DNA of 64,000 nucleotides, from contig NCHQ01000026.1 of NCBI GenBank assembly GCA_002281855.1, forward strand, positions 12,015-76,014. The letters run 5' to 3'. This document shows, piece by piece, positions 37,002 through 46,850 of the stretch. The stretch comes from Rhodospirillales bacterium 24-66-33 (lineage in GTDB: Bacteria > Pseudomonadota > Alphaproteobacteria > Reyranellales > Reyranellaceae). Position numbers and translations under genes: made by a program. The notes under the pieces are model-generated. The model was given only the letters and a program-made list of their open reading frames with translations. It was not told the origin of the DNA and searched no databases. Position 1 is the stretch's first letter, and each line of letters opens with the position of its first letter.

Positions 37002-38213
37002 GTGAACGCGGCGGGAAACTCGGCGAACCGTACTGCCCACGGCGGGAAGTGCGGCGCTTGCCTCGCTTCGCCAAATGCCCAATCTTGCGCCGGACTTCCG
37101 CCGCGTCCTCCGGAGTTCACGATCTTGTCCGCTTTCCTGCTTACCCGGTGGAACGGTCTGCCCCTGTTCTGGCGGGCCCAGCTTGCGGGATGGGGACTCT
37201 TCGCGATTGTGAATGTCATGGCGCAGCGCGTGGCCTTCCACAGCTACGGCGTCGCCTTCGCCCGCACCGGCCTCATCCTTCTGTGTCTTGTGATGATCTC
37301 GACGGCGATGCACGCCGTTTACGTCTCGCGACGTTTCGAGGCCCGTGTGTCGCTCGGGGGCATGGCGCTGATCGGCCTGCTGTCGCTTCTCGGCGCGCTG
37401 GCGACCGCGACCGCGATCGTGGCCGCGCACGAAGCCCTTCCCTGGCTGGTGACGCCCGATCGGCGCGGGACCGAGGAATTCCTCATCCCCCTCGTGCATT
37501 ATTTCTTCGTCCTGGCGGGATGGAGCCTCGCCTATTTCTGGCTGCGCGCCGAACTGGCGGAGCAGGCCGAGCACCGCAAGGCCATGCGTGCGCAGGCTGA
37601 GACCCTGCGGGCCGAACTCGAGCAACTGCGGCTCCAGCTCGACCCGCACTTTCTCTTCAACGCCCTGAACGGGGTCGCCGAGGAGATCCCCGAGCACCCG
37701 GCGGCCGCCCTCGAGATGCTGCGCAACCTCAGCGCCTACCTGCGCCATTCGCTCGACGGGATCGATCATACGGTCGTAACCGTTTCGAAAGAAGTTGCCG
37801 GCTTGATGGCCTATCTCGGCGTCCAGAGGGCGCGCTTCGGTAACCGCCTGCACGCGCGTCTCGACGTGATGCCCGAGGCCGCACAATGGCGCATCGCGAG
37901 TTTCCTGCTGCAGCCGCTGGTGGAGAATGCCGTGAAGCACGGCCGGCGCGACGATGGCCTCGACCTCCGCATCGACATTCGCCTGTCGGGCGATACGCTT
38001 CACGTCGAGGTCGAGAATAGCGGCGCGCTCGACGGGACGCCGCGACCGGCGCACCGCCGGCGCCCGGGTATCGGGGTGGAGAACGTGCGCCGTCGTCTCG
38101 CGCTGCACTATCCGGACCGGCATGCCTTCAGCCTAACCGAGATCGGCGAGCATGCCGGGGACAAGAAAGTGATCGCGACACTCGAACTCAAGGGCGAGCC
38201 GTGCGGGTCCTGA
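37002..38213 (+). CDS. LytS/YehU-type sensor histidine kinase (His_kinase domain)
   Basis: Several N-terminal TM helices are followed by LRLQLDPHFLFNALNGV (H-box of the LytS family) and LLQPLVENAVKHG (N-box). The start is uncertain: GTG 37002, or in-frame TTG 37125 with GGAG 10 nt upstream. Confidence 0.85.
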   Translation: MNAAGNSANRTAHGGKCGACLASPNAQSCAGLPPRPPEFTILSAFLLTRWNGLPLFWRAQLAGWGLFAIVNVMAQRVAFHSYGVAFARTGLILLCLVMISTAMHAVYVSRRFEARVSLGGMALIGLLSLLGALATATAIVAAHEALPWLVTPDRRGTEEFLIPLVHYFFVLAGWSLAYFWLRAELAEQAEHRKAMRAQAETLRAELEQLRLQLDPHFLFNALNGVAEEIPEHPAAALEMLRNLSAYLRHSLDGIDHTVVTVSKEVAGLMAYLGVQRARFGNRLHARLDVMPEAAQWRIASFLLQPLVENAVKHGRRDDGLDLRIDIRLSGDTLHVEVENSGALDGTPRPAHRRRPGIGVENVRRRLALHYPDRHAFSLTEIGEHAGDKKVIATLELKGEPCGS

Positions 38214-38914
38214 TCGTCGACGACGAGCCGCTGGCCCGCAGCGCCCTGCGGCGGCTGCTTGCGGCTCATGCCCAGGTGGAGATCGTCGGCGAAGCCGACA
38301 GTACCGAAGCCGCCCGCCAACAGGTCGCGAGCACCCAGCCCGACCTCGTTCTCCTCGACATCGAGCTGGGCGGCGGCCGCGACGGTTTCGACCTGCTCGA
38401 CTCGCTGGTGCGCCGGCCCATCGTGGTCTTCGTCACGGCCTATGCCGAACACGCGGTCGATGCCTTTGCCGTCGAAGCCGTCGATTTTCTGCTCAAGCCG
38501 GTGGAGCCGGCGCGCCTCGAACGGGCACTTGCGCGCGCGGCGCGGGAGATTGCCCTGTCGGCGCGGCCGCCAGGTCCCGGGGCGATCGAGCTGCGGACAC
38601 CGCGTCGAACGTTGCTGGTCGCGCCGGCCGAGATCGTGGCGCTCTGCGCCGACGGCGATTTCGTGCGCGTGTTCGTGGCCGGGCAGCCGCCGGTGATGAT
38701 CCTGCGCACGCTGGCGCATTTCGAAGAGGTGCTGCCGGCCGACTCGTTCGTGCGGCTGGGCCGGTCGGTGATGATCAATCGCGACCGGTTGCGCCGCTTC
38801 GATGCGCCGACGCGGTCGACCAGCCGGCTCTTCCTCGAAGGCATGACCGATCCGCTCGTCATCGGCCGCGCGGCAACGGCCCGTCTGCGCGAGGTGCTGG
38901 CGGATAAAGGCTGA
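38201..38914 (+). CDS. LytR/AlgR-family response regulator (receiver plus LytTR DNA-binding domain)
   Basis: MRVLIVDDEPLAR...DLVLLDIELGG is the receiver, with the phospho-Asp in LLDI. The C-terminal LytTR-type block is ...IVALCADGDFVRVF...FVRLGRSVMINRD. There is a 13-nt overlap with the kinase gene. Confidence 0.9.
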   Translation: MRVLIVDDEPLARSALRRLLAAHAQVEIVGEADSTEAARQQVASTQPDLVLLDIELGGGRDGFDLLDSLVRRPIVVFVTAYAEHAVDAFAVEAVDFLLKPVEPARLERALARAAREIALSARPPGPGAIELRTPRRTLLVAPAEIVALCADGDFVRVFVAGQPPVMILRTLAHFEEVLPADSFVRLGRSVMINRDRLRRFDAPTRSTSRLFLEGMTDPLVIGRAATARLREVLADKG

Positions 38915-40001: not shown

Positions 40002-41591
40002 TCAGCGATCCAGCCAGACGTCCTCGAAGCGCCAGTTGTTGTAGATGCTGTTGATGTGCAGCGTCACGTTCTTGACGTGCGGCTGCCAGCAGCCGGCGAT
40101 GCGGCCGTGGCTGATGATCGGTCGCGCCACGTCCTCCTGCAGCTTGCGGTCGATCTCCCAGACCATCTCCTGGCGCTTCCTGCGGTCGGTTTCGCGCGAC
40201 TGTTCCTCGAAGAGCTTGGTCATCTCCGGGTCGCAGTAGTTGTTGTAATTGCGCAGCGAGCCGCAGGCGTAGCCCTCGAACAGGGTCACGTCCGGATCGT
40301 CGACCGCGCTGCCGGTGAGGTTGAGCGCGACGACATAGTCCTTCTTGAAGACGCGGTTGTAGTAGATCGTCGTATCGATGATCTCGAGTTCGGCATCGAT
40401 CCAGATCTGCTTGAGCTGGTCGATCAGGATCACCGCGGGATCCTTGAAGGTGGCGATGTTGCGGGTGCTGACCTTCAGCTTGAGCCGCTTGTCGGGCCCA
40501 TAGCCCGCCTCCTTCATCAGCGTGCGGGCCTCCTCGCGGGACTTATCAACGTCGCCATAGCCGATCAGACCCTTAAGCTTCTCCGCAGGCAGGCCCCAGA
40601 CGCCGTCGGGCGGCGGCAGCAGGGCGCCACCCATCCTGCCTTCGCCTTCGCTCAGGATCCTGATGAAGGCGTCGCGGTCGAGCGTCAGTGCCATGGCGCG
40701 GCGGATCTTGGGATTGTCGAAGGGCGCGACCTCTCGATTGATGATAAGGTTGGTGCTGACGCCGCTCTCGCGCATCGTGCACTGCGCCTGGGGAGCGTCG
40801 CGCTTGATGTTCTTCAGTAACGGCACGGTGATGTCGGCGGGAAACGTCATGTCGAACCTGCCGGCGACGAACGACAGCATGCGTGTCGAGCGGTCGGCGA
40901 TGATCGAGAACTCGATGGCATCGAGATACGGGCGTCCCGGCTTCCAGTAATCCGGATTCTTAACCAGCTTGATGCCCTCGTTCATCCTGAAGTCAGCCAG
41001 TTTGAACGGCCCGGTGCCGACCGGCTTGCGCCGCATGTCGGCGGCCGGCACGTGGCAGGGATAGATCGGCGTGTAACCGGAGGCGAGCAATGCCAGCAGC
41101 GATGGTTGCGGCTGCTTCAGGTGGAAGGTCACCTGCGACGGGCCGTCGGCGGTCACCTTCTCGACATTGGTGTACCAGGCGCGGCGCGGATTGCGGCGCA
41201 GTCGGTCGGGCGTGAGGATGAGATCGAAAGTGCAGGCCACGTCTGCCGCCGAGAAGGGCTTGCCGTCGTGCCACTTCACGCCGTCGCGGGTCTTGAAGAC
41301 GAGCTTGCGTCCCTCGTCCTTGGTTTCCCAGCCCGTCGCGAGGTCGGGCACGATGGACTCGAGGCTGTTCTTCGGAACGTTCTGATCGAAGACCACGAGG
41401 TTGTTGTAGATCGCCATGAAGGGGACGGCGACCGAGACGGTCGATTCCTCATGGATGGAGGCGCTGGGCGGCGTGTCCATGTGCTGTATGCGCAGCGTGC
41501 CGCCGCTTTTCTGGGCCCATCCGGTGCCGGACCATCCGATGAGGGCTGCTGCGATGCAGATCGAAACGAAACGCGTCTTTGCGACTTTCAT
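40002..41591 (-). CDS. ABC transporter substrate-binding protein, family 5 (peptide/nickel/opine type); no permease or ATPase adjacent
   Basis: The start is MKVAKTRFVSICIAAALIGWSGTGWAQ (signal peptide; ATG 41591). GGTLRI and WHDGKPFSAADV are typical SBP_bac_5 blocks. Confidence 0.9.
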   Translation of the reverse strand: MKVAKTRFVSICIAAALIGWSGTGWAQKSGGTLRIQHMDTPPSASIHEESTVSVAVPFMAIYNNLVVFDQNVPKNSLESIVPDLATGWETKDEGRKLVFKTRDGVKWHDGKPFSAADVACTFDLILTPDRLRRNPRRAWYTNVEKVTADGPSQVTFHLKQPQPSLLALLASGYTPIYPCHVPAADMRRKPVGTGPFKLADFRMNEGIKLVKNPDYWKPGRPYLDAIEFSIIADRSTRMLSFVAGRFDMTFPADITVPLLKNIKRDAPQAQCTMRESGVSTNLIINREVAPFDNPKIRRAMALTLDRDAFIRILSEGEGRMGGALLPPPDGVWGLPAEKLKGLIGYGDVDKSREEARTLMKEAGYGPDKRLKLKVSTRNIATFKDPAVILIDQLKQIWIDAELEIIDTTIYYNRVFKKDYVVALNLTGSAVDDPDVTLFEGYACGSLRNYNNYCDPEMTKLFEEQSRETDRRKRQEMVWEIDRKLQEDVARPIISHGRIAGCWQPHVKNVTLHINSIYNNWRFEDVWLDR

Positions 41592-41744
41592 TGTGGTTTC
41601 CTCCGACGATGTCTTGTTGTTGGTGCTCTGGTCTCCGTTGGTTTGCAGTGCGAATGAAAGCCTAGACCGGGCGCCGCCGTGGTGTCGACCCGCCGCCACG
41701 GTCTGCTATCGTCCGCCGCCGTTTCGGAATTCGAGGAGAGTCCA

Positions 41745-42611
41745 GTGACCACTGCCCCCCAGCGCCTGCGCGCCCTGCTGGCCGAGCCCGGCCTCGTCGT
41801 CATGCCGGCCGTGTGGGATGGGCTCACCGCCAAGCTGACCTATGGCGAGGGCTTCAAGACCGCCTTCCTCTCGGGCTCCTGCGTCGCCGCCAGCCGCCTC
41901 GGCGGTCCCGACCTCGATCTCGTCTCGTTCGGCGAGATGTTCGATTCCTTCAACATGGTGCACAGCGCGGCGCCCGACCTGCTGGTGCTGGCCGACGGCG
42001 ATCATGGATACGGCAATGCGATGAACGTTCAGCGCACCGTCAGCGCCTATGGCCGCGCCGGCGCCGCCGCGGTGCTCATCGAGGACAAGATCACGCCGCG
42101 TGCGCTCACGGCCGCCGGCAAGCCCTGTCTGCCGCGCGAGGAAGCGCGCATGAAGATCCGCGCCGCCGTCCAGGCCGCCAGGGAGTCGGGCATCCTCGTG
42201 CTGGCGCGCACCGACTGCCGCCCGACGCAGGGCATCGACGAGGCCGTCGCGCGCATCGAGATGTATGTCGAGGAAGGCGCCGACATCCTGTTCCTCGACT
42301 CGCCGGCCGACGACGAGGAGATCAAGCGTGGGATCGCCGCCGCCAAGGGGAAGCCGTCCTTTGCCGTCCTGTCGCCCGGTGCGCCGCGCGCCACGCCTTC
42401 GCAGAAGGAAGCTCTCGCGCTCGGCTTCAAGATCGGCACCTATCCGACGGGCATGCTCTCACCGGCCGCCGCCGGAATGAAGGCGGGCCTGGCGGCGCTC
42501 AAGGCCGGGGAGGCAGAAAGCAAGAGTGCGCTGTCGCCGGCCGATCTGCGCGCGACCTTGGGCTATGCCGACTACGATACCGCGGCGAAGCCTTTCATCG
42601 TGAAGGCCTGA
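41745..42611 (+). CDS. Isocitrate lyase / PEP mutase family protein (2-methylisocitrate-lyase / carboxyvinyl-carboxyphosphonate-phosphorylmutase-like)
   Basis: The start is placed at GTG 41745 (GAGGAGAG SD). Blocks are LVVMPAVWDGLTA, ADGDHGYGN, AAVLIEDK, LARTD and ADILFLDSP. Confidence 0.8.
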   Translation: MTTAPQRLRALLAEPGLVVMPAVWDGLTAKLTYGEGFKTAFLSGSCVAASRLGGPDLDLVSFGEMFDSFNMVHSAAPDLLVLADGDHGYGNAMNVQRTVSAYGRAGAAAVLIEDKITPRALTAAGKPCLPREEARMKIRAAVQAARESGILVLARTDCRPTQGIDEAVARIEMYVEEGADILFLDSPADDEEIKRGIAAAKGKPSFAVLSPGAPRATPSQKEALALGFKIGTYPTGMLSPAAAGMKAGLAALKAGEAESKSALSPADLRATLGYADYDTAAKPFIVKA

Positions 42612-42620
42612 CGTCGGCCC

Positions 42621-43061
42621 ATGAAGCGCAAGACCAGCAAGGCATTCGTCTATCTCGGCGCCTCCTCGATTCACGGTCTCGGCTGCTTTGCCGACATCGA
42701 CATCAAGAAGGACGAGCTGGTCCGGGTGTGGGACGGCAAGGACAGCCGCTTTATTCCCGTCGCGAGGGCTCATGCCTCGCCGCAGGTGCATCTCATCAAG
42801 CGCTTCGGCATCCGGACCGCGCGCGGATACTGGGTGCCGCTCGATTTCCTGCGCATTTCGACCGGCTGGTACATGAACCACGCGGCCGAGCCCAACATCG
42901 GCTCCGACGACGGTGACGTGACCTACTACGCCCTGCGCGACATCGAGGCCGGCGAGGAACTCACCATGGACTACCGGCTCATGGACGAGGATTACGACAA
43001 TCTGGACCGTGACGAGGTCGTCCCGGCCGCCGCGCGGCCGAAATCGCGCCGTCGCCGCTGA
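42621..43061 (+). CDS. SET-domain protein (putative protein-lysine methyltransferase)
   Basis: IHGLGCFA...I.K.ELV matches the SET N-region. GWYMNHAAEPN matches NH(S/A)xxPN. ALRDIEAGEELTMDY matches the (E)ELTxDY catalytic-Tyr block. The gene starts 9 nt after the upstream stop. Confidence 0.75.
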   Translation: MKRKTSKAFVYLGASSIHGLGCFADIDIKKDELVRVWDGKDSRFIPVARAHASPQVHLIKRFGIRTARGYWVPLDFLRISTGWYMNHAAEPNIGSDDGDVTYYALRDIEAGEELTMDYRLMDEDYDNLDRDEVVPAAARPKSRRRR

Positions 43062-43120
43062 GCAGCGGTTTCGGCAACCCGCCGGGCGCCTCCCCGTTCG
43101 CTTCCGAAGAGGAGAGCGAC

Positions 43121-43300
43121 ATGAACCAGGATCCGAACCCCAAACCCCGCGACGGCGACAATCTCGACGTCGAGCGCGGGCCTGATATCGAGGAGCGCGT
43201 GCCGCCCCGCGATGGAGACACGTCCCGGACCGTCGGGCCCGAAGACGAGGATCGGCGCGTGCGACCGGGCGAAAAGCGGCCGCACGGAACGATGCCCTGA
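43121..43300 (+). CDS. Small hydrophilic protein, 59 aa, with internal PRDGD repeat (below the ORF-track cutoff)
   Basis: A GAGGAGAG SD ends 5 nt upstream of ATG 43121. The translation is MNQDPNPKPRDGDNLDVERGPDIEERVPPRDGDTSRTVGPEDEDRRVRPGEKRPHGTMP. Third codon positions are overwhelmingly G/C. Confidence 0.45.
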   Translation: MNQDPNPKPRDGDNLDVERGPDIEERVPPRDGDTSRTVGPEDEDRRVRPGEKRPHGTMP

Positions 43301-43308
43301 GCCGTAAG

Positions 43309-43740
43309 CTACAGGTGGTCCTTCTCGAAATCCTCGCAGGACAGGCCTAGCGCGGACAGGCCGTCGGCCAGATGATCGGCGAGCAGGGGCTGGCCGAGCA
43401 GATAGGCCGAGGTCCGGTCGTTGCGCGCGTCCCGGGCCTGGGTGCGGAGATCCTCCCAGTCATCGAGGTCGCCGTCGCCGCGGCCGAGCCACAGCAAGGC
43501 CACAAGATCGACCTGCTCATCCTCGTCGAGCGCCGCGATGAAGGCCACGAGTTCGGCCTGGGTCGGATCGTCCTCGTGTTCTTCCAGGATCGAGACCCCG
43601 CCATCGTCGGCGGCATTCGAGGCTGAATCGGGATCCGTCTCGACATCCTGAACGTCGAATTCTCGTGCCTTCACGATGATGTGGCAAACCATGTCGGTCG
43701 CGATCGCGAGAGCGGGCGGGTTCGTGAGGCCGTCGGACAT
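43309..43740 (-). CDS. DUF3775-family protein
   Basis: The start is MSDGLTNPPALAI (ATG 43740). The acidic block is ELVAFIAALDEDEQVDLVALLWLGRGD, followed by YLLG.PLLADHL, as in DUF3775 proteins. The 393-aa track ORF upstream of this is Arg/Pro-rich read-through. Confidence 0.7.
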   Translation of the reverse strand: MSDGLTNPPALAIATDMVCHIIVKAREFDVQDVETDPDSASNAADDGGVSILEEHEDDPTQAELVAFIAALDEDEQVDLVALLWLGRGDGDLDDWEDLRTQARDARNDRTSAYLLGQPLLADHLADGLSALGLSCEDFEKDHL

Positions 43741-43820
43741 CGAGCGTCTCCAGAGGGTCTGCAGGTCAGGCCGTCCAACGATTGGCCCTCCGATACGTTC
43801 CGGAAGGGACGTCCGCAGCA

Positions 43821-45272
43821 TCACACCAGTGCCGCCAGGTAGGCCTCGGCGTGCGCGGAGTCCGCGGATGATCCTGCGAATCCGACATAACCATCGGGAC
43901 GGATGAGCTGCAGCGTGTGGCCCCCGGGGACTGCCGTCACCAGTCGGGGAAACCTTGCCGCAAGGGCCGTCACGACGGCGGCCGGACCCAAGGCGGTGAA
44001 CCTGCGGCCGCCCGTCCCCTCGGGAAGCCGCCGCGGCCAGCGTTCCCCGGGCTCCGGGCCGTCCGAGACTCCGGCGGACCGCGCGGTCAGGGGGCTGTCC
44101 GGATAGCCGATATCCATCTCGGCAAGCTGGTCGGCGACCCGGTGCCGGATCTGCGGAAAGCCAGCGGCAAACCGCAGGATCGCATTCCGCACATCCTGCA
44201 GGAGCGGATTGCGGAGCGTCGCGGCTTCGGTCATCAGCCCGGCATTGCGCAGCACACGATCGCCGACGGCGCTGCGCTCCCGCGAATAGCTGTCGAGCAG
44301 GGACGGCCTGGCGGCACCTTCGATCACGAGCGCGAGTTTCCAGGCGAGATTGAAGGCGTCCTGCATGCCGGTATTCATGCCCTGACCGCCCGCCGGGCTG
44401 TGGATGTGGGCGGCATCGCCCGCTAGGAACACGCGGCCCTTGGAATAATCCCTGACCTTGCGCTCGTTGATGCGGAAGGCGGCAAGCCACACCGGATCGG
44501 ACATGACGATGCCGGGCGAGCCGCGGCGCGCCATCAACGCGTTGATCTGGTCGAGTGTCGGGTCGGGATGAGGGGCGGCACCGCTGGCGGGCCCCAGATC
44601 GGCGATCACCCGCCAGCGATCGCCGTCGATGGGAAAGAAAGCCAGGATGCCGTCGCGGTGCCAGAAGATGTGCAGATGATCCAGGGGGCTGAGGCCCGAG
44701 ATATGGCCATCGGCCAGCGCCCAGTGCGACTGCAGCGTCGAGCCCTCAAACTCGAAGCCGAGCCCATGGCGCACCGCCGAGTGGGCGCCGTCGCAGCCGA
44801 CCAGCCAGTCCGCCTCGACCGTATCGGGAGCGCCGCTCCGTCGGGCGAGCGTGGCCCTGACCGACGAGCCCGTGTCGGTGAACCCGGTCAGTTCGACCTC
44901 GCGCTCGACCGTCACGCCGGACGCGGCCAGCCGCTCCTCCAGCACGCGCTCGGTCTCGCTTTGCGCGATCATCAGCGCATAGGCGAAGCGGCTGTCGATC
45001 ACGTCGAACGAAATCTCGGCGACGACCTCGGTGCCGGTCGAGATCCGGGCGCCGTGCGCCGGCGCGCCTGCGGCCACGAAGTCCGTGGCGTAACCGGCAT
45101 CGTCGAACAGCTCGAGCGTGCGGCTCCACAGCACGAGCGCCTTCGACTTGTCGGTTCGGTGCGCTGCCTTGTCGATGATTCGAACGGGAATACCGTGGCG
45201 GACGAGCTCGTTGGCGAGCGTGAGGCCGACCGGGCCCGCGCCCGAGATGAGCACTTTCGGATGATCCGCCAA
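43821..45272 (-). CDS. FAD-dependent aromatic-ring monooxygenase (PheA/TfdB-like, FAD_binding_3 plus C-terminal thioredoxin-like domain)
   Basis: TTG start at 45272 with an AAGGAGAG SD. The GxGxxG motif is VLISGAGPVGLTLANEL, with DG.HS and GRVFLAGDAAHIHSPAGGQGMNTG blocks. Confidence 0.9.
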   Translation of the reverse strand: MADHPKVLISGAGPVGLTLANELVRHGIPVRIIDKAAHRTDKSKALVLWSRTLELFDDAGYATDFVAAGAPAHGARISTGTEVVAEISFDVIDSRFAYALMIAQSETERVLEERLAASGVTVEREVELTGFTDTGSSVRATLARRSGAPDTVEADWLVGCDGAHSAVRHGLGFEFEGSTLQSHWALADGHISGLSPLDHLHIFWHRDGILAFFPIDGDRWRVIADLGPASGAAPHPDPTLDQINALMARRGSPGIVMSDPVWLAAFRINERKVRDYSKGRVFLAGDAAHIHSPAGGQGMNTGMQDAFNLAWKLALVIEGAARPSLLDSYSRERSAVGDRVLRNAGLMTEAATLRNPLLQDVRNAILRFAAGFPQIRHRVADQLAEMDIGYPDSPLTARSAGVSDGPEPGERWPRRLPEGTGGRRFTALGPAAVVTALAARFPRLVTAVPGGHTLQLIRPDGYVGFAGSSADSAHAEAYLAALV

Positions 45273-45545
45273 GATACTCTCCTTGCAGGATATGGCCGAT
45301 CGACCCTAGCCCCGCTCCGCAGTGCGGCCAATCGGTCCTTGCAAAAGCCTCCGCGAAAGGCCATATGCAGGCGGTCGATAGACGGACAGACGATTTTGGT
45401 CCGCGTTTCCGGTTTCGCCGGCAGCCCGCTCCACGAACTTTGATCCCGAAAACCAGTGCGAATTCGACGGCCGGCTGCGCGTTCCCTGATTTTTGTGTGG
45501 GACGCCGCGCGGTTCAGCATATCTAAAGTAGTGAAAGGGTTACCC

Positions 45546-45758
45546 ATGGCGACGGGAACCGTGAAGTGGTTCAATATTCAGAAGGGCTTCGGCTTCATCC
45601 AGCCGGACAACGGCGGTGCCGATGCCTTCGTGCACATCAGCGCCGTCGAGCGCGCCGGCATGGGCACGCTGAACGAAGGTCAGAAGGTCGAGTATGAACT
45701 CGTCTCCGATCGTCGCAGCGGCAAGATGTCGGCCGACAACCTGAAGTCGGTCGGCTGA
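45546..45758 (+). CDS. Cold-shock protein (CspA family)
   Basis: [34 protein letters not shown] carries the RNP1 motif KGFGFI and the RNP2 motif AFVH. It is 70 aa with a long 5-prime untranslated region upstream. Confidence 0.95.
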
Positions 45759-46166: not shown

Positions 46167-46850
46167 TCAGGAGACAGTCGACGGGGCCGCTTCCGGCGGG
46201 GTGGGGGGCAGCAGCCGGTCGATGGCCGTGATCCAGGCGTGGCGTGCTTCCTCTGCCGACAGGCCGTGGCGTTCGCGCATGCGACCCCAGCTTTCGAAAT
46301 CGGTCAACTGCTCAAGCGCGATCAGCAATACCTTGCGATCGACCTCGGGCAGATCGGCGAGTTCGGCGCGATAGTTAAGGGCCAGACCCGTCCACATGAC
46401 GTTGCGAATCCGGCTGATCCGCGCTCGTACCAGTTCCGATTCTTTCTGATGTTGCAGCAGCACCCGCCATAGCGTCAGCCAACGCTCGCAGATGGCGGAA
46501 CGCCTCTCGACAAGGGACCGCACGCGTTCGGCCCGGGTGCCGCTCCGGTCTCGGCGGACGGCGCGGGCCATCGCCTCGGCGAAGGCATAGTCGGCCGCGG
46601 CGATGGTGAGTGCCGGAAGATCATCGAAGCGCTCGAAGACCGATCGCACGGAATACCCGGCGCGCTTGGCGATCTGTGCCGCCGTCGGCGCCTCCGGCCC
46701 CTCGTTCAGCAATTCCAGATAGGCTTCGATGATGAGCTGCTTGGTCCGTTCGCTGCGGAGCGCGCGGCCGTCCATGCGGCGGGGCTTTGCGGGGCTCTCC
46801 GCGCCCTGAACTGAAGGAGTCATTTGTTCGCTGTTCGGCACCGTATCCAT
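46167..46850 (-). CDS. TetR/AcrR-family transcriptional regulator
   Basis: The N-terminal HTH is RSERTKQLIIEAYLELLNEG...PTAAQIAKRAGYSVRSVFERF. Confidence 0.9.
   Translation of the reverse strand: MDTVPNSEQMTPSVQGAESPAKPRRMDGRALRSERTKQLIIEAYLELLNEGPEAPTAAQIAKRAGYSVRSVFERFDDLPALTIAAADYAFAEAMARAVRRDRSGTRAERVRSLVERRSAICERWLTLWRVLLQHQKESELVRARISRIRNVMWTGLALNYRAELADLPEVDRKVLLIALEQLTDFESWGRMRERHGLSAEEARHAWITAIDRLLPPTPPEAAPSTVS

Follow-up and report, generated by a model that had tools for sequence, protein, structure and literature searches.

A predicted stand-alone SET-domain methyltransferase of Reyranella and its derived position behind a PEP-mutase-family gene

The window, the 64,000-nucleotide stretch of DNA that was analysed, belongs to a Reyranella, a genus put in Hyphomicrobiales by NCBI taxonomy, the order that the first-pass annotation had named. 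Its picture of a free-living soil bacterium needs qualifying, as the available part of PMC12993568 describes Reyranella as amoeba-associated. On the plus strand, an open ORF with an ATG start (42621..43061; 146 aa and stop) encodes a protein with a Pfam SET domain. Directly upstream lies a gene of the PEP-mutase/isocitrate-lyase superfamily (41745..42611, plus strand, 288 aa; PF13714 PEP_mutase, E 3.7e-38), whose TGA stop at 42609-42611 is separated from the ATG of the SET gene at 42621 by a spacer of 9 nt (42612..42620). Downstream by 59 nt follows a small ORF of 59 codons (43121..43300, plus strand), and convergent with it, the two stops lying 8 nt apart, is a DUF3775 gene of about 143 aa (43309..43740, minus strand; Pfam E 4.1e-29). 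The 393-aa ORF listed at this place (43309..44490) is too long and runs into the real gene that follows. Further on are a gene for an FAD-binding aromatic-ring hydroxylase-like protein (43821..45272, minus strand; PF01494, E 3.6e-87), a cold-shock-domain protein (45456..45758, plus strand) and a weak TetR-family match (46167..46850, minus strand). The ORF 44568..45443 gave conserved tblastn matches and was set aside as the opposite-strand shadow of the hydroxylase-like gene. A LytTR-type two-component pair, consisting of a His_kinase (37002..38213) and a response regulator (38201..38914), both on the plus strand, is located on the other side of the SET gene.

The first-pass annotation had read the 146-aa ORF as a SET-domain protein and proposed an hmmscan search for the domain. 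This search matched Pfam SET (PF00856) with E 3.2e-10 and 40.8 bits, where the gathering cut-off asks for 22.4; the match spans residues 19-118 of the protein and positions 1-104 of the 105 in the profile. A search of the window's genome with the same profile found the same place with 40.4 bits. The sequence features that had been pointed out are present in the translation exactly where they had been placed: GWYMNHAAEPN at residues 82-92, DIEAGEELTMDY at 107-118 and the basic tail PKSRRRR at 140-146. With a significant domain match, and with the catalytic Tyr and the SAM-binding signatures kept in the alignments described below, the call of a genuine SET-domain protein is sound. Its GC3 of 0.857, compared with 0.86-0.89 in the neighbouring genes, corresponds to native codon usage. 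NCBIfam holds no model for the protein, a PADLOC search returned nothing, and a search of PHROGs gave a single weak match of unknown function.

All three core signatures can be aligned with the SET domain of MLL1. The GxG SAM-binding motif, or motif I (H18-G19-L20-G21; 42672..42683, plus strand), matches IHGRG of MLL1, and the NHxxPN block (N86-H87-A-A-E-P91-N92; 42876..42896, plus strand) matches NHSCEPN, with no Cys inside. The ELxxDY block (E113-L-T-M116-D-Y118; 42957..42974, plus strand), identified by conservation and by alignment with ELTYDY of MLL1, contains the catalytic-site Tyr. Among 108 aligned relatives, G21, N86, H87, N92 and D122 are invariant and G19, P91, E112, E113, T115, D117 and Y118 are conserved in at least 90% of the sequences; in an alignment of 20 sequences Y118 is invariant as well. 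This conservation suggests that the SAM-binding and catalytic-Tyr signatures are under selection. Elsewhere, F62 lies opposite a Tyr of MLL1 in the SET-I region, and M116 aligns with the first Tyr of ELTYDY, a position that we take to be the Phe/Tyr product-specificity switch of SET enzymes. Two more SET genes, both distant, were found in a search of the window's genome and have Phe at this position: a minimal form of 116 aa (G000:C5:9583-9879; L001 1468..1818, plus strand) and a form of 200 aa with a basic low-complexity N-terminal extension (G000:C49:9650-9952; L003 1483..2085, minus strand).

Searches against solved structures also point to a SET fold. With the single sequence as query, the best PDB chain is the MLL1 SET domain (E 5.9e-6, residues 3-127), followed by other KMT2 proteins and SET1; with a profile of the 108 relatives the match to MLL1 SET improves to E 1.6e-19, far beyond what chance would give, and KMT2B/C/D, SET1, NSD, EZH2 and ASH1L are also found. 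An AlphaFold2 model built on the alignment of 108 relatives has a mean pLDDT of 78 and a pTM of 0.65, the pLDDT being low only after about residue 121 (55-47). When this model was compared with Foldseek, the matches listed were SET domains, the best with E 1.5e-5 but with low TM values of 0.38-0.45. VIA retrieved 120 chains with Z of at least 8 (best Z 10.7, rmsd 2.0 over 82 residues), and the 50 that it listed are SET proteins. In the ESM Atlas, all 30 of 30 neighbours are bacterial SET clusters.

Both ends of the protein are basic. The N-terminus MKRKTSKA (42621..42644, plus strand) occurs as MKRKxSKA or xKRKWxKA in 61 of 61 orthologues. In the alignment with MLL1 it falls on the strand just N-terminal to the SET domain, so that it would belong to the fold from about residue 3 on and not be a detachable leader. 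At the other end, a DN[LI]xR[DE] motif, again present in all 61 orthologues, is followed by an Arg/Lys-rich tail (43008..43058, plus strand) that is predicted to be disordered, as judged from the low pLDDT. Within these 61 proteins the tail has a median length of 17 residues (range 5-43) and a median net charge of +6, with a charge of at least +3 in 57 of them; its sequence varies and its composition stays constant. The conserved acidic segment RxMDxxxDNLxRD and the basic tail would occupy the place of a post-SET zinc module. C22 is the sole Cys of the protein, none being found in NHAAEPN or after Y118, so that there is no zinc post-SET module. The basic tails and the DNLxRD segment are missing from the more distant relatives in alignment A1.

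How this architecture relates to known SET proteins can be seen from two groups. The catalytic SET domains of eukaryotic KMT2 proteins (MLL1-4, SET1) are the best solved sequence relatives, matching nearly the whole protein including the N-flanking strand. The identity in fold alignments is about 25-30%, however, and the Reyranella protein differs from them in having no other domains, no post-SET Cys cluster, no Cys in NHxxPN and a Met at the first Tyr of ELTYDY. In its dimensions it is similar to two minimal SET-domain lysine methyltransferases, Go1-SET of Methanosarcina mazei and vSET of the chlorella virus PBCV-1, the latter (3kma) being among the fold matches of the model. All three consist of a single SET domain of about 120-150 aa that carries GxG, NHxxPN and ELxxDY and has no zinc pre-SET or post-SET modules. 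The window's protein nevertheless represents a distinct subfamily, set apart by its SET-I sequence, by the conservation of the DNLxRD segment and by basic tails at both the N-terminus and the C-terminus.

The existence of bacterial SET genes in free-living species has been known for years, as stated in the accessible sections of PMC3980110 and PMC10117894, and NCBI already names members of the present subfamily as SET-domain proteins. A word-indexed search yielded 114 relatives, many titled 'SET domain-containing protein' and some filed under Reyranella or Enhydrobacter. An exhaustive search of representatives at 50% identity gave 1327 clusters at E of at most 1e-3, 106 at 1e-10 or below, and only 2 at 1e-30 or below; beyond these two closest clusters, the relatives that follow are proteins of 120-135 aa with at most 44% identity. 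The nearest relatives outside the subfamily are short bacterial SET proteins with 40-44% identity, not eukaryotic ones, and a cluster look-up of them returned metagenomic singletons. In species-representative genomes, relatives are encoded in 488 of 600 candidate stretches from many phyla. Within the genus an orthologue is found in 65 of 104 genomes (51 of the 81 of high quality), compared with none of 16 genomes from the other five genera of the family. As judged from these searches, the window's SET protein belongs to a narrow, Reyranella-restricted subfamily that sits among a very large number of short SET proteins of bacteria.

To place the window's gene order in this context, its neighbours were located by tblastn around the SET gene in 60 further genomes of the genus, out of 63 that gave a strong match (G053, G071 and G108 were left out). 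The PEP-mutase gene is directly upstream on the same strand, at a distance of 8-92 nt, in 24 of the 60 loci. It lies about 2.3 kb away with opposite-strand genes in between in three more; there is no PEP-mutase in ten loci, where the SET gene stands divergent beside an SBP5 transporter gene, and none of the window's neighbours is present in the remaining 23. Adjacency is therefore missing in 36 of 60 loci, and in a maximum-likelihood tree of 61 SET proteins it occurs in two subclades and nowhere in a basal clade of 16 rows. The genes next to SET elsewhere are heterogeneous and have no common theme (among them enoyl-CoA hydratase, ABC transporter, glycosyltransferase, GST, SNase, DUF3141, luciferase-like, toxin/HTH). 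Sixteen orthologous loci from the species-representative search gave the same picture; they are mostly duplicates of the 60-genome set and were not counted. These neighbour lists are approximate, because the GC3-filtered gene calls missed the SET gene itself in six of 16 representative loci. In the three loci with a distant enzyme gene, the genes in between are DUF2950 and DUF3300 on the opposite strand (L106 2689..4868, minus strand, and likewise L102 and L108). In one distant orthologous locus (L140 2436..5432, plus strand), another PEP_mutase paralogue and a group-1 glycosyltransferase are found directly upstream on the same strand. This paralogue is 29% identical to the window's enzyme, and its place beside SET may be a coincidence, given the many PEP_mutase paralogues in each genome.

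The enzyme gene has a distribution of its own. An orthologue with 82-99% identity is found in 114 of 121 genomes of the family and 102 of 104 of the genus, with or without SET. It is kept in closed genomes without SET (G029 and G034) and lies far from SET, by tens of kb or on another contig, in G003, G030, G045, G104 and G109. As for its activity, the protein is far below every NCBIfam equivalog cut-off, the best being prpB with 146 bits against 354, and the solved proteins nearest to it are petal death protein, 2,3-dimethylmalate lyase and oxaloacetate acetylhydrolase. The first-pass annotation had presented the SET gene and this enzyme gene as a pair worth following through synteny. With adjacency in just 24 of 60 loci and two subclades, and an enzyme gene that is nearly universal in the genus regardless of SET and often distant from it, neither the pair as a meaningful unit nor the enzyme as a partner of SET was borne out; the operon-based reading is largely a by-product of the gene order in this lineage, and the PEP-mutase gene is a neighbour of SET. 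Set against the other genomes, the SET gene emerges as a self-contained accessory gene of the genus Reyranella, and its position directly behind the enzyme gene as a lineage-specific rearrangement.

The 100 nt upstream of SET suggest how this position came about. Of the 46 loci with a long spacer, 38 have a promoter-like element, TTG[AC]-N17-20-G[GCT][TC]A, located 55-80 nt before the SET ATG. It is present whatever gene lies upstream, in four contexts (loci L088-L143, for example L107, L121 and L129), and a short leader travels with it and with SET through these four contexts. Dinucleotide shuffles of the upstream regions gave 1.55 matches on average and never more than 5, compared with the 38 observed, a control that overstates the support for the element because the pattern was defined after viewing the data and the loci are kin. 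The conserved element is probably a promoter that travels with the SET gene. In the window's own clade, alignment A3 contains three spacer states: 76-89 nt with the element kept, 32 nt with the leader only, and 9 nt with everything lost. Read from these states, the 9-nt spacer arose as nested deletions in this clade removed sequence beside a core gene unrelated to SET, and the nine nucleotides would be the remnant left after deletion of SET's own upstream element. The location of SET behind the enzyme gene, being a recent accident of the lineage, says little about the target of SET. The locus cautions against guilt by association, as its operon-like spacer would have come from recent deletions.

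What follows for transcription is specific to the window. A promoter and terminator scan of 41500-43700 found no terminator-like site, and its sole promoter-like site is on the minus strand. The 9-nt spacer, the absence of such sites between the two genes and the deletion of the upstream element together make co-transcription with the enzyme gene, as claimed by the first-pass annotation, plausible here, and SET is now probably transcribed by read-through; this state is derived, and read-through does not imply shared function. Contigs from four RNA libraries of one sample, whose strains share about 90-99% identity with the window, span the greater part of SET at a depth of 2-7. Two short ones, of 133 and 188 nt with their end at 42648, run across the upstream stop and reach only 28 nt into SET, less than the 31-letter rule for crossing contigs. 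Because contigs cannot show a transcript and carry-over of DNA is possible, they are not evidence for co-transcription. A loose contig end at 42619 matches the leader of the SBP5-adjacent type, which indicates that several strains are mixed in the sample. A search of Rfam with the SET leaders of four loci and with 41000-44000 of the window found no family; a match to sR19 was rejected as chance, at 20 bits against a threshold of 45. The RNA fold of the spacer between SET and the small ORF is unremarkable (z -0.32).

The best explanation of the protein itself is that it is a catalytically competent, stand-alone, SAM-using SET-domain methyltransferase, a prediction made from its sequence. Regarding its role, we favour with moderate confidence a cytoplasmic protein-lysine methyltransferase that its basic tails keep on a nucleic-acid-bound target, encoded by a self-contained accessory gene that came to stand behind the enzyme gene only secondarily. 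By homology, the NHxxPN and ELTxDY segments would form the SET core, SAM would sit in a pocket lined by the GxG turn (G19/G21) and N86-H87, and the target amine would enter a channel at Tyr118. In the same way, the acidic segment RxMDxxxDNLxRD and the disordered Arg/Lys-rich tail would replace the zinc post-SET module. The enzyme would work inside the bacterium on a lysine of a DNA-bound or RNA-bound protein, of the nucleoid or the ribosome, and its tails would anchor it to the polyanion. We infer the intracellular, nucleic-acid-bound protein target from the basic N-terminus and tail, the native codon usage and the promoter-like element of the gene. Precedents for endogenous nucleoid targets are Go1-SET, which methylates the DNA-binding protein MC1-alpha (PMC3980110, in the portion available), and cpnSET, which methylates Hc1 (PMC10117894, likewise in part). 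Searches of the genome with the models for the histone fold (PF00808) and Hc1 (PF07432) found no homologues, so that the known kinds of endogenous SET target were not found with these two models.

Several other readings have to be weighed against a methyltransferase of nucleic-acid-bound proteins. One of them, a SET-fold protein that binds a partner without methyl transfer, is scarcely credible. The replacement of the MLL1 Tyr by F62 and the missing post-SET zinc module could be taken in its favour, yet the core SAM-binding and catalytic signatures are strongly conserved in 108 sequences, and minimal SET proteins without post-SET modules, such as Go1-SET and vSET, are reported to be active in the parts of PMC3980110 and PMC10117894 at hand. 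We also think it improbable that the protein methylates a small molecule like BurB of Burkholderia thailandensis, a SET-domain methionine S-methyltransferase. BurB is likewise a short bacterial SET protein with an NH...ELxxDY core, it demonstrates that such a protein can methylate a free amino acid (PMC12542666, as far as its available text goes), it is among the PDB matches (9l4t, E 0.0097), and a metabolic gene adjoins SET in the window. The similarity is not full-length, though: it is limited to the shared core at residues 85-121, compared with 3-127 for MLL/SET1, no polyketide or DMSP-pathway genes accompany SET here, and biosynthetic neighbours do not recur in any context. The disordered basic tails, typical of macromolecule binders, likewise suggest a macromolecular target unlike that of BurB. 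A functional pair, in which SET methylates the PEP-mutase/isocitrate-lyase enzyme or a metabolite made by it, is highly unlikely and the least supported when set beside the BurB-like and effector readings. The shared strand, the 9-nt spacer free of terminator-like sites, the adjacency in 24 of 60 loci and the different paralogue two genes upstream of SET in L140 speak for it; these are outweighed by the loci that lack the arrangement, including the whole basal clade, by the presence of the enzyme gene in 102 of 104 genus genomes compared with 65 of 104 for SET, by its retention in the closed SET-less genomes and its remote location in five others, by the promoter-like element that SET keeps wherever the spacer is 76-92 nt, and by the DUF2950 and DUF3300 genes that separate the two in three loci.

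A role outside the bacterium is conceivable, since basic tails of this kind would serve for nuclear import or type IV secretion just as well. On this account, which we regard as unlikely, the protein would be translocated into amoebae or other protists, enter the nucleus by means of its basic ends and there methylate histones of the host, in the manner of RomA/LegAS4, NUE and BtSET. There is just as small a chance for the fuller version, a minimal KMT2-like nucleomodulin of a non-pathogenic, amoeba-associated alphaproteobacterium whose termini serve as export and nuclear-import signals and which marks histones in grazing amoebae; if true, such a protist-directed nucleomodulin would widen the range of SET effectors past the classical pathogens. 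In favour of an effector, the solved proteins closest in sequence are KMT2-family H3K4 methyltransferases, the gene has a patchy distribution in the genus, and the protein is rich in Lys and Arg at both termini. In alphaproteobacteria, positive charge at the C-terminus is known to act as a type IV signal. The nucleomodulins, namely Legionella RomA/LegAS4, Chlamydia NUE/cpnSET, Burkholderia BtSET and Bacillus anthracis BaSET, are bacterial SET-domain proteins as well, and make up most of the characterised ones according to what is available of PMC10117894 and PMC3980110; Reyranella, for its part, is reported to be associated with amoebae. None of them, however, is among the close sequence matches listed. 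They are secreted by dedicated systems, whereas in the window's protein the fold begins at about residue 3 and leaves no room for an N-terminal secretion signal; some also carry extra domains, such as the ankyrin domains named for the Legionella enzyme in the title of PMC10653858, which the window's protein does not. Of 64 genomes with SET, 27 gave a match to the model of the VirB4-family ATPase (PF03135) and 37 gave none, the latter including the closed genomes G003, G016 and G022. The native codon usage and the nearest relatives, which are short bacterial and not eukaryotic SET proteins, also argue against an effector.

Among environmental bacteria SET-domain proteins are widespread, and an endogenous target is known for hardly any of them. 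Being conserved in the genus, compact, and equipped with its own promoter-like element and basic tails, the Reyranella subfamily is a tractable candidate for finding such targets. The small ORF downstream of SET (43121..43300) is a feature of the locus in its own right. Searches of Pfam, PADLOC and PHROGs gave no match to it, and the ESM Atlas no clear one. Matches to it occur in 31 of 121 family genomes, and in six of these (G104, G045, G116, G105, G109 and G084) it stands divergent beside the PEP-mutase gene, with SET far away or not found. It has a strong Shine-Dalgarno-like GAGGAG 6-8 nt before its ATG and a GC content by codon position of 0.80/0.49/0.80. Full-length and directly downstream of SET it is present in 13 of the 60 loci, with the near-invariant C-terminus PEDEDRRVRPGE(K/R)RPxGTMP.
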